Source: Escherichia phage 212 | Length of the DNA: 64,000 bases | Sequence record: PQ765507 | Direction: 5' to 3' (one strand) | Shown here: piece by piece, positions 16,631 to 18,139 of the stretch | Layout: the number at the start of each line of letters is the position of its first letter | How positions within the stretch are numbered: position 1 is the stretch's first letter | Notes under the pieces: model-generated | Database searches by the model: none | Told to the model about the DNA's origin: nothing | The model's input: the letters and a program-made list of their open reading frames with translations, nothing else | Made by a program: the position numbers and the translations under genes

Positions 16631-16843
16631 ATGTTTAATAAACTGATTCAGAAAATTTTGGGAACAGAAATGGTTGAAGTGACTTATCGTGTTATTGATT
16701 TATCACCGCCATATGCTTGCGATGAAGATGCTATTAAAACTGTTGTTATGCGAAAAACATATCGCGGGCGGTCAATTAAAGAAAGATTGCCAGACCATGG
16801 CATGTGGTATGCAACCAAGATTATCAGTGTCAAAGATGTCTGA
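16631..16843 (+). CDS. hypothetical protein
   Basis: 70 aa, RBS GAGGA. Confidence 0.45.
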   Translation: MFNKLIQKILGTEMVEVTYRVIDLSPPYACDEDAIKTVVMRKTYRGRSIKERLPDHGMWYATKIISVKDV

Positions 16844-17294
16844 GTTAGAAATCAGAAGCAATTTCCCATGGCCGTCATGTGCATTAAGTAACTTTGCTAA
16901 ATGGCCTTTTGTTATGGAGGGTATCCAGTTTGGAGGTCTTGAAGGCTTCCTCCAAGGGTGCAAGGTGAGAAATAATGAACAACAAAAACGTATATTTGGG
17001 ATGTCCGGATTGGCCGCCCAGCAAAGTGGAAGAGCTTATGCAAGAGCTGCGGACCGTGGGACGCTTTTCTGGCTTGGAATTCCCTTTTCAAGATACTCGA
17101 CATCATGGAAAGAGTTGTATACAAATGCATATTTTGAAGCAGCGCTCCAAAACAAAGGATTCCGCGACGCATTACAAGCCACAAAGGGCAAAGTTTTAAA
17201 GCATTCGATGGCAAGTCACCTTACTGTTCATGATACAATATTAACTGAACAAGAATTTATTGACATACTTAACCAATTGAGAGATGCATTATGA
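16836..17294 (+). CDS. YbiA/NADAR-like domain protein (putative ADP-ribose / N-glycoside hydrolase)
   Basis: 152 aa; N-terminal SNFAKWPF...EGxxQxxK resembles the remembered E. coli YbiA motif SNFAAWP...EHYFQAQK; start overlaps the upstream stop. Confidence 0.5.
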   Translation: MSELEIRSNFPWPSCALSNFAKWPFVMEGIQFGGLEGFLQGCKVRNNEQQKRIFGMSGLAAQQSGRAYARAADRGTLFWLGIPFSRYSTSWKELYTNAYFEAALQNKGFRDALQATKGKVLKHSMASHLTVHDTILTEQEFIDILNQLRDAL

Positions 17295-18139
17295 AACCCG
17301 TTATTTTAACAGATATTGATGGCGTATGTTTGTCATGGCAGTCTGGCTTGCCTTATTTCGCTCAAAAATATAATTTACCCCTGGAACACATCCTTAAGAT
17401 GATTCAGGATGAAAAATTTGTGACCCCTGGTAAACTTTTCAATTGTGATGAAGAGTTAGGCGCGCAGTTAATTGAAAAATATAACTGTTCAGATTTTATT
17501 CGCTATTTGTCTCCTTACACAGATGCGTTAAGGGTTATTAATAACCTCAAAGAGCAATATGATTTTGTGGCTGTTACAGCCCTGGGTGATTCTATTGATG
17601 CTCGCCTGAATCGTCAATTCAACCTGAATGCTTTGTTCCCTGGGGCGTTTAAAGAAGTGATGATGTGTGGTCATACAGCCTCTAAAGAAGAGTTATTTCA
17701 GAAGGCAAAAGACAAATATAATGTCGTTTGTTATATTGATGACCTTGCACACCATTGCGACCATGCGAGTGAAATCCTTGAAGTCCCGGTTTATTGGATG
17801 GCCCGTGGCGAACGTGATGCTATTCCTAAAACAGCTTCCAAAGTTTTTAATTGGGACGATGTAGCTGGACAGCTTAAACTGAAACACAAAGATGAACCAG
17901 TCAAACCAGAATACACCCCAGATGAACTCCGTAAACTGGACGAGCTGTTTCGTGAAACTCGCCGTCTTCAGCAGCAAATGCAGCAAGGCTGGCAGCCAGG
18001 TCAACCATGGACTCCTGGATATAATCCAGCGTATCCATATCAATATAATCCAGCGTACCCATATCAATATGGTCCACGCGTAGGTACTGGCATTGAATAT
18101 TGGTACAATCAACCGACCGGTGGCCAAGGGGGTAATTGA
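17291..18139 (+). CDS. HAD-superfamily hydrolase-like protein with C-terminal Pro/Tyr repeats
   Basis: N-terminal DxDGV motif (ILTDIDGVCL); C-terminal tandem YNPAYPYQ repeats. Confidence 0.5.
   Translation: MKPVILTDIDGVCLSWQSGLPYFAQKYNLPLEHILKMIQDEKFVTPGKLFNCDEELGAQLIEKYNCSDFIRYLSPYTDALRVINNLKEQYDFVAVTALGDSIDARLNRQFNLNALFPGAFKEVMMCGHTASKEELFQKAKDKYNVVCYIDDLAHHCDHASEILEVPVYWMARGERDAIPKTASKVFNWDDVAGQLKLKHKDEPVKPEYTPDELRKLDELFRETRRLQQQMQQGWQPGQPWTPGYNPAYPYQYNPAYPYQYGPRVGTGIEYWYNQPTGGQGGN
18021..18068 (+). repeat. 24-bp tandem repeat (2 units, 1 mismatch) inside the HAD-like gene
   Basis: ATAATCCAGCGTA(T/C)CCATATCAAT x2, encoding YNPAYPYQ twice. Confidence 0.8.

Follow-up and report, generated by a model that had tools for sequence, protein, structure and literature searches.

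The genome of Escherichia phage 212 carries, between rIII (13860-14249) and the DNA ligase gene 30, a short gene of the YbiA/NADAR type whose stop codon overlaps the start of a gene for a HAD-like protein, and two genes for Alt-type ADP-ribosyltransferases follow the ligase (Table 1). The stretch of DNA analyzed here, referred to as the window, covers 64,000 nucleotides of sequence record PQ765507. An earlier note on this DNA placed the locus correctly and proposed that an eraser of ADP-ribose marks, its HAD-like neighbor, and the Alt writers act as one counter-defence system. Its sequence-level statements all hold, including the coordinates, the ATGA overlap, the DxDGV start and Pro/Tyr tail of the HAD-like protein, the ligase, and the two Alt genes. 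The question is whether these genes belong together functionally or merely lie side by side. The latter is very probably the case: in this Gaprivervirus-like T-even phage, the ORF at 16836-17294 is adfN, 30.2 encodes a predicted C1-capped HAD phosphomonoesterase that is its neighbor by inherited gene order, and the alt genes form a separate late unit and are not partners of AdfN.

Table 1 Features of the adfN-alt region of Escherichia phage 212 (positions in the window)
Feature	Position	Strand	Basis
Ortholog of T4 gene 30.4, 70 aa	16631..16843	+	phrog_2042; sequence read directly
adfN, predicted ortholog of T4 gene 30.3; putative phage-subfamily NADAR DNA ADP-ribosylglycohydrolase, 152 aa	16836..17294	+	PF08010, T4 gp30.3 identity, residues, AF2 model
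Ortholog of T4 gene 30.2; predicted C1-capped HAD phosphohydrolase core (~residues 1-200), helix (210-233), disordered Pro/Tyr/Trp-rich tail	17291..18139	+	HAD motifs, predicted structure
24-nt tandem repeat, 2.6 copies, YNPAYPYQ units in the gp30.2 tail	18019..18082	+	Tandem Repeats Finder
Ortholog of T4 gene 30.1 (DUF3045)	18139..18417	+	PF11243 E 1.8e-18; position as in T4 and SP18
Gene 30, ATP-dependent DNA ligase	18421..19959	+	PF01068 E 2e-28; annotated DNA ligase in the SP18 and T4 records
Terminator-like hairpin AAAAGGGC-TTCG-GCCCTTTT, then TT, directly after the ligase stop	19961..19982	+	Read from sequence; palindrome also listed by the scan, on the minus strand
T4 late-promoter consensus TATAAATA, 25 nt upstream of the altA start	19985..19992	+	Pattern search
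altA, Alt-type ADP-ribosyltransferase paralog, 624 aa	20018..21892	+	PF03496 E 7e-16; 33% identity to T4 Alt; alta in SP18
altB, Alt-type ADP-ribosyltransferase, 686 aa	21902..23962	+	PF03496 E 9e-20; 36% identity to T4 Alt, full length

The ORF at 16836-17294 starts with the ATG at 16836, ends with the TGA at 17294, and encodes a protein with the N-terminus MSELEIRSNFPWPSCALSNFAKWPF...GLEGFLQGCKV. This protein is 85% identical to T4 gp30.3 over an ungapped alignment of 152/152 aa, both proteins being 152 aa long, and its gene lies between 30.4 and 30.2 in an order common to T4 and SP18. From its sequence, we assign it as the ortholog of T4 gp30.3, now called AdfN. The earlier note knew of no such gene at this locus in T4, but the gene is T4 30.3 itself, in the same gene order.

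That note had also suggested a NADAR/YbiA-like protein and a Pfam profile search to check it, and the search gave a divided result. PF08010 matched with an E-value of 5.7e-64, far beyond chance, and was the sole Pfam match at E up to 1; the generic NADAR model PF08719/DUF1768 did not match. We take the missing match to reflect the divergence of the subfamily model and not a lack of homology, because several homologs of the protein carry both PF08010 and PF08719 and because its family profile reaches YbiA (E 0.0067). This profile was needed to reach YbiA, as a single-sequence search of the PDB sequences returned nothing. The structural comparison agreed with the suggested kinship: when an AF2 model of the protein (pLDDT 94) was searched against the PDB with Foldseek, a probability of 1.00 was obtained only for YbiA (2b3w; TM 0.68, E 2.5e-5), PnNADAR (8bau), and a Geobacter NADAR (8bat), and the next match had an E-value above 2. 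The 152-aa protein is thus predicted to be a NADAR-fold enzyme.

The catalytic residues are conserved as well. E36, K43, and H123 are all present, and across 40 aligned homologs E36 and H123 do not vary, while the conservation of K43 is 90% or higher. The positions of E36 and K43 are those of the conserved catalytic Glu and the phosphate-binding Lys of the NADAR segment E-G-F-L-Q-x-x-K; these residues were mutated in T4 AdfN (PMC11825919), and their equivalents were also mutated in the E. coli C7 and Phytophthora NADARs. H123 occupies the position in the last strand where a His marks the phage NADAR subfamily, YbiA having Glu and DarG1 having Asp (PMC11125620). The C-terminal helix, which is missing in RB69, is intact.

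T4 gp30.3 was named AdfN (anti-DarT factor NADAR) by Johannesman et al. in 2025 and is a guanine-specific DNA ADP-ribosylglycohydrolase (PMC11825919). It strips ADP-ribose from DNA in vitro. T4 and T2 require it against DarTG1, and it suffices to rescue RB69, a rescue that the catalytic mutations E36A and K43A weaken (PMC11825919). The statement in the earlier note that NADAR enzymes reverse DarT-type DNA ADP-ribosylation is therefore true of the T4 ortholog and DarT1 (PMC11825919, PMC11125620). T4 adfN mutants are still resistant to DarTG2, and thymidine ADP-ribose is not reversed by the phage NADAR in vitro (PMC11825919, PMC11125620). The published T4 Tn-seq data (HIDEN-SEQ), which cover a single host and medium and two DarTG systems, give a log2FC of -7.25 for 30.3 on DarTG1.

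By analogy with T4, the DarT1 toxin would add ADP-ribose to guanine in the DNA of phage 212 and thereby block replication. AdfN, as a putative stand-alone NADAR-fold glycohydrolase, would cut the guanine-ribose bond using Glu36 and Lys43, the catalytic residues tested in T4, with His123 occupying the third active-site position. Cleavage would free ADP-ribose and give back normal DNA, allowing the phage to grow on DarTG1 hosts. This mechanism was shown for the T4 ortholog, and we infer it for the phage 212 protein. Since adfN is full length and the catalytic residues are kept, phage 212 is predicted to be resistant to DarTG1. AdfN as a DarTG1 counter-defence enzyme is already published and is nothing new to the field; what the earlier note did was to derive, from raw sequence, a function that experiments established in 2023-2025, which validates that reading. 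Most of the 1510 phage records with 30.3 label its product "hypothetical protein". The ORF of phage 212 deserves the label adfN instead.

The next gene starts within the ATGA (17291-17294) that ends adfN and encodes a protein of 282 aa with the N-terminus MKPVILTDIDGV. All four HAD catalytic motifs (the DxD nucleophile/acid, the Thr/Ser, the Lys, and the acidic DD pair) are present in gp30.2: among 38 homologs, D8, D10, K132, D150, and D151 never vary, and T96 reaches at least 90% conservation. The predicted structure consists of a Rossmann-like HAD core and a cap domain, predicted as a four-helix C1 cap, so that the HAD-like label first given to this protein is upheld. Curated HAD models did not recognize it: neither Pfam (E up to 1) nor NCBIfam yielded a family. 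PHROG matches were obtained with phrog_420 and, weakly, with phrog_1238 and phrog_415 (polynucleotide kinase family, E 7e-4), and when a profile was used to look for remote relatives bearing informative Pfam domains, it retrieved the same phage family alone. The best Foldseek match was a 5'(3')-deoxyribonucleotidase (E 1e-8), which was also the best, non-significant, sequence match. We predict that gp30.2 is a catalytically intact C1-capped HAD phosphomonoesterase, and our best guess for its substrate is a (deoxy)nucleotide-like small molecule. Its Pro/Tyr/Trp-rich tail is predicted to be disordered and varies between lineages; a relative with 96% identity has exactly one 8-aa repeat unit fewer. 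The protein deserves the annotation HAD-family phosphatase.

Across Straboviridae, 30.2 is syntenic with the ligase gene and not with 30.3. The ligase was found at most 1.5 kb downstream in 56/56 qualifying 30.2 loci at an identity of 40% or more, and 30.3 was directly upstream in 17 of the 73 qualifying 30.2 loci. The linkage to the ligase is also seen in Jiaodavirus, Schizotequatrovirus, and Ceceduovirus records, despite differing surrounding genes. In evolutionary terms, 30.2 travels with the DNA ligase and not with adfN, and its place as the conserved upstream neighbor of the T4-type DNA ligase across Straboviridae is a modest lead. A functional tie to the ligase is conceivable, though we put it forward tentatively: gp30.2 might be a 3'-phosphatase that heals nucleic-acid ends, or a nucleotidase serving DNA metabolism, with no link to ADP-ribose. 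In addition to the synteny, the weak match to the polynucleotide kinase family and the deoxyribonucleotidase matches would fit such a role. However, synteny is not equal to function, and the predicted C1 cap favors small-molecule substrates over DNA ends, a preference that is established for the HAD superfamily. Moreover, T4 can dispense with 30.2 but not with the ligase, and a search of the literature turned up no paper that mentions gp30.2.

Full activity of T4 AdfN depends on a T-even factor (PMC11825919), so a helper must exist somewhere. One candidate is gp30.4, in which case the real counter-defence unit would be 30.4-30.3, and not 30.3-30.2 with or without alt. In the T4 Tn-seq data, 30.4 is mildly depleted on DarTG1 (log2FC -1.79, adjusted p 0.014) and neutral on DarTG2; in the rows from gene 26 to the end, it is the only gene besides 30.3 with an adjusted p <0.05 on DarTG1. 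Its occurrence in 15/15 T-even-type loci and 0/64 distant loci fits the T-even restriction of AdfN-T4 activity, and it evolves fast, its identity to the Tequatrovirus copies being 33% vs 85% for AdfN. We nevertheless consider this role of gp30.4 unlikely. The end of 30.4 and the start of adfN share 8 nt, and neither in phage 212 nor in T4 is adfN preceded by its own Shine-Dalgarno sequence, so insertions in 30.4 should lower the translation of AdfN. The depletion is partial, as a polar effect would give, and a restriction to T-even phages is common to many other genes. Thus, the depletion of 30.4 on DarTG1 is probably a polar effect. A second candidate for the potentiating factor, gp30.2, was ruled out for single-gene loss by the Tn-seq data (log2FC -0.12 on DarTG1).

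Downstream, a terminator-like hairpin and a late-promoter match lie between the ligase and altA. The late-promoter pattern TATAAATA has 20 matches in the window vs 4.1 expected, and the one at 19985 is the sole plus-strand match between 13854 and 30564. A sigma-70 promoter scan of the region gave 30 sites vs 27.6 in shuffled sequence, which is no better, and was not used. From these signals, the alt genes are predicted to be a late transcription unit separate from the ligase operon. The two proteins share 33% identity, and the match of altB to T4 Alt runs from end to end and takes in the C-terminal segment DFASF...ASCI. In the alignment, the ADP-ribosyltransferase triad R / S-T-S / E-x-E is visible as the segments YRAQ/WRGQ, FASTS/YVSTS, and ETEVILPRG/EQEVILPRG. 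T4 packages its Alt protein into the capsid.

The co-location of phage NADARs with ADP-ribosyltransferases in T4-like phages was noted already in 2022 (PMC9503650). A single writer/eraser module of the NADAR, the HAD phosphatase, and the two Alt proteins, in which gp30.2 processes the freed ADP-ribose or cooperates with AdfN, could draw on the overlap between the 30.3 stop and the 30.2 start, which is kept in T-even phages and a few distant phages, and on the near-universal presence of both genes in T4-like phages (30.3 in 1510 and 30.2 in 1457 phage records). The need of T4 AdfN for a T-even factor would also suit it. Some of the distant phages that preserve the overlap have 41-45% AdfN identity, which is compatible with weak selection for the 30.3-30.2 linkage. 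We find such a module very improbable, however, and for DarTG1 and DarTG2 in T4 it is largely refuted already, as 30.2 and alt insertions were not depleted on hosts with either system: besides the neutral value of 30.2 on DarTG1 given above, the published log2FC is 0.00 for 30.2 on DarTG2 and -0.01 for alt on DarTG1, and insertions in modA, modB, and nudE are unaffected on DarTG1. In most lineages, 30.3 has moved off from 30.2 with both genes retained (for example, in PKO111, EcS1, and Cronus), and of the 71 30.3 loci with room on either flank, 48 lack a 30.2 gene at a distance of up to 8 kb; 30.2 holds its position upstream of the ligase instead. No NADAR-HAD fusion, which we sought as a sign of coupling, was found among the homologs, and the 418-431-aa gp30.2 homologs (P0248-P0252) bear an unrelated, unannotated C-terminal extension. 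The alt genes stand behind the terminator and late promoter. Characterized NADARs work on guanine-ADP-ribose in DNA, and the target of Alt in the T4 record is the host RNA polymerase. The abutment of adfN and 30.2 is the inherited T-even gene order of the densely packed early 30.9-to-30 cluster, and the neighboring HAD phosphatase and Alt genes are ordinary T4-type neighbors that form no joint system. A role of gp30.2 may exist against ADP-ribosylating defences other than the two DarTG systems of the Tn-seq.

It is hardly credible that the main targets of the phage NADAR are RNA adducts or soluble signals derived from ADP-ribose, as a contextual argument of 2022 (PMC9503650) and the failure of AdfN-T4 to rescue DarT1 toxicity in uninfected cells (PMC11125620) might suggest, since the removal of ADP-ribose from DNA in vitro, the genetic necessity and sufficiency against DarTG1, and the effect of E36A and K43A on rescue (PMC11825919) contradict this as a primary role, though it could survive as an added activity.

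An ORF that overlaps adfN in the +1 frame (30.3', 16975-17199) was considered separately as a conserved gene. In 15/17 T-even relatives it stays open over 76 codons, but we did not accept it because two relatives have lost its ATG, two others carry a truncated version, and 8% of codon-shuffled versions of adfN are equally open.

Among known systems, the closest to the phage 212 gene is T4 adfN, with which it shares the flanking 30.4 and 30.2 genes, the overlapping starts and stops, E36, K43, His123, and the C-terminal helix. The two proteins differ by substitutions at 23 of 152 positions, and phage 212 is a Gaprivervirus-like T-even phage whereas T4 is a Tequatrovirus. DarG1 (BC4488 subfamily; Geobacter lovleyi 8bat and E. 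coli C7) has the same NADAR fold and, according to the literature, hydrolyzes guanine-linked ADP-ribose on DNA, an activity that the phage 212 protein may share by analogy. In contrast to DarG1, phage 212 AdfN has no partner toxin and is an orphan, has no N-terminal extension, and carries His instead of Asp in the last strand; T4 AdfN, moreover, is not an antitoxin in uninfected cells (PMC11825919, PMC11125620). The best structural match is the founding member of NADAR/DUF1768, YbiA (2b3w), which has the SNF...W/H-P and E-x-F-x-Q-x-x-K segments in common with AdfN, but the identity is 18% and its last-strand residue is Glu and not His, which places it in another subfamily than the phage NADAR. 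Members of the YbiA family are annotated as N-glycosidases in riboflavin biosynthesis (PMC11125620, PMC9503650). For gp30.2, the nearest solved relatives are probably the cdN/mdN 5'(3')-deoxyribonucleotidases (HAD class I; 2jao, 2i7d), with a C1-capped HAD fold and the DxDGV motif I. Both altA and altB share PF03496 with the R / S-T-S / E-x-E motifs with T4 Alt, and altA lacks the C-terminal segment common to altB and T4 Alt. In T4, the second alt copy is present only as the remnants alt.-1 and alt.-2. The alta/altb pair of JS98 and SP18 is another close counterpart, a two-gene arrangement like that of phage 212 being annotated in SP18.

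The 152-aa ORF that the earlier note had likened to YbiA/NADAR proteins is gene 30.3 of T4 itself; contrary to what that note suggests, T4 does carry the gene at the same position. Indeed, T4 gp30.3 is 85% identical to it over all 152 residues, without gaps. The protein matched PF08010 (Phage_30_3) in Pfam with an E value of 5.7e-64, and this family co-occurs with the generic NADAR model PF08719 in several homologs. E. coli YbiA was reached at an E value of 0.0067 when a 40-homolog profile was searched against all PDB sequences, the alignment spanning exactly the SNF...EGFLQ..K segment that had been spotted by eye. 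An AlphaFold2 model (pLDDT 94) matched YbiA (TM 0.68), a Phytophthora NADAR, and the DarT1-associated NADAR of Geobacter lovleyi in the PDB with a probability of 1.00 each; beyond these three NADAR structures, no match was better than E = 2. In the homolog alignment, E36 and H123 never vary and K43 rarely does; the window allele, which is full length, keeps all three. From these features, we infer that it encodes a working AdfN, as gp30.3 is now called. Close PF08010-type homologs were also detected on two long bacterial contigs (proteins P0165 and P0222; contigs of 4.5 Mb, from Methylocystis bryophila, and of 424 kb), possibly as prophage-borne or chromosomal copies.

The NADAR/anti-DarT interpretation is right, and this function is already published rather than new. 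NADARs hydrolyze guanine-linked ADP-ribose, and those of phages carry His at the position occupied by Glu in YbiA and Asp in DarG1 (Schuller et al. 2023). Phage gp30.3 is active in vitro on guanine-ADP-ribosylated DNA, is inactive on thymidine adducts, and has no antitoxin action in uninfected cells (Toxins 2024, PMC11125620). Gene 30.3 was renamed adfN by Johannesman et al. 2025 (PMC11825919), who found that T4 and T2 need it to withstand DarTG1 and that it suffices to rescue RB69, the sensitivity of which results from a frameshift deleting the last 15 residues of AdfN. In the same study, E36A and K43A weakened AdfN, and AdfN-T4 was fully active only during T-even infection, implying a phage factor. 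The NADARs of T4-like phages were described as early genes encoded along with ARTs (Iyer et al. 2022, PMC9503650).

The gene order of the region, derived from the ORF list and the annotation of Shigella phage SP18 (Gaprivervirus, DNA 93% identical), is identical to that of the T4 rIII-to-alt region. All sequence-level claims of the earlier note held: the N-terminal motif of the 152-aa ORF, the ATGA overlap of 30.3 with 30.2, the DIDGV motif of a HAD-like protein, its Pro/Tyr-rich repeat tail, and two Alt paralogs (33% mutual identity), both with a PF03496 ADP-ribosyltransferase domain. The counterpart of the internal ORF 30.3' annotated in T4 (61% identical, +1 frame within adfN) is probably not a conserved gene. 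Its frame is open in 15/17 T-even relatives, but two lack the ATG, two others have a truncated ORF, and codon shuffling leaves the frame just as open in 8% of controls.

Features of the rIII-to-alt region in the window
Feature	Coordinates
cd	12342-12923
gene 31	13490-13837
rIII	13860-14249
remaining small 30.x genes	from rIII to 16631
30.4	16631-16843
30.3 (adfN)	16836-17294
internal ORF 30.3'	16975-17199
ATGA overlap, 30.3/30.2	17291-17294
30.2 (HAD)	17291-18139
24-nt tandem repeat, 2.6 copies	18019-18082
30.1	18139-18417
gene 30 (DNA ligase)	18421-19959
30.2-ligase synteny block	17291-19959
hairpin	19961-19982
late-promoter consensus	19985-19992
altA	20018-21892
altB	21902-23962

The proposal that the NADAR, HAD, and Alt proteins form one counter-defense module is not supported, with T4 genetics, synteny, the absence of fusions, and transcription all against it. 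In HIDEN-SEQ, a 2025 T4 transposon study, 30.3 insertions were lost on DarTG1 hosts (log2FC -7.25, adjusted p 0; DarTG2, 0.03). Values for 30.2 were -0.12 (p 0.61) on DarTG1 and 0.00 on DarTG2, and those for 30.1 were -0.01 and 0.02; on DarTG1, alt (-0.01), modA (0.11), modB (0.13), and nudE (-0.03) were likewise near zero. These values come from Data S6 (DarTG1; rows from gene 26 to the end, the sheet being identified by the header that comes next, "Data S7 ... DarTG2") and Data S7 (DarTG2). Nearly all T4-like phages carry both 30.3 and 30.2 (1510 and 1457 phage records, respectively), but 30.2 is absent within 8 kb in 48/71 IMG/VR loci where a 30.3 homolog has 1.5 kb or more of sequence on each side, and 30.3 lies directly upstream of 30.2 in only 17/73 qualifying loci. 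In PKO111, EcS1, and Cronus, for example, the two genes are widely separated, and no NADAR-HAD fusion was present among the homologs found. The NADAR gene is often located away from the 30.2-ligase pair. The ligase lies at most 1.5 kb downstream of 30.2 in each of the 56 loci that reach 40% identity and have sufficient flanking DNA, and the pair is kept in Jiaodavirus, Schizotequatrovirus, and Ceceduovirus records despite differing other neighbors. The position of the gp30.2 HAD phosphatase gene next to and upstream of the T4-type ligase gene is conserved across Straboviridae (loci L082-L084 and L085-L147), a previously undescribed synteny.

Within the DarTG1 rows from gene 26 onward, the only gene besides 30.3 to be significantly depleted (adjusted p below 0.05) was 30.4, with a log2FC of -1.79 and an adjusted p of 0.014. 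This is likelier to reflect a polar effect on AdfN translation, the simpler reading given that adfN starts inside the 3' end of 30.4 and has no Shine-Dalgarno sequence in either the window phage or T4. That gp30.4 is instead the missing T-even factor needed by AdfN seems improbable in light of this overlap, even though the DarTG1-conditional depletion, the restriction of gp30.4 to T-even-type loci (15/15 vs 0/64 distant loci), and its fast evolution (33% identity to Tequatrovirus copies vs 85% for AdfN) would fit such a helper.

The 282-aa product of 30.2 is 66% identical to T4 gp30.2, with the first ~190 residues highly conserved and the tail divergent. It matched no Pfam or NCBIfam model, and we found no publication on gp30.2. 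The HAD assignment was nevertheless correct: all 38 aligned homologs share the catalytic residues D8, D10, K132, D150, and D151, and nearly all share T96, and the predicted structure (pLDDT 86 overall, >90 in the core) combines a Rossmann-like core, into which four helices are inserted after motif I, with a helix (210-233) and then a disordered tail. In the HAD superfamily, an Asp two residues past the nucleophile marks phosphatases rather than dehalogenases, and a C1 cap favors small substrates. The alignment and model indicate a putative phosphatase favoring a small substrate, any particular one being a guess. The tail varies by lineage and is absent in about half of 119 cluster representatives; its 24-nt tandem repeat differs in copy number, a 96%-identical relative having exactly one YNPAYPYQ (8-aa) unit fewer. 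A C-terminal G-T-G-I-E-Y-L-x-x-Q-P-T sequence, resembling a short linear binding motif, recurs in a subset of tailed homologs. Five metagenomic homologs (P0248-P0252, 418-431 aa) have the HAD core fused to a ~220-residue C-terminal extension with no Pfam match.

The ligase stop is followed, at a distance of 2 nt, by a GC-rich hairpin resembling a terminator (GGGC-TTCG-GCCC and a T run), and the T4 late-promoter consensus TATAAATA comes directly after the hairpin, 25 nt before altA; no further copy occurs on the plus strand from rIII to altA. The alt genes therefore form a separate, late unit, in agreement with the T4 record, which notes that Alt is carried in the capsid and enters together with the DNA. 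The C-terminal DFASF...ASCI segment common to AltB and T4 Alt is missing from AltA (624 aa), and its absence might affect capsid packaging or processing. Finally, whereas T4 has one alt and a decayed second copy (fragments alt.-1 and alt.-2), the window encodes two full-length Alt paralogs.
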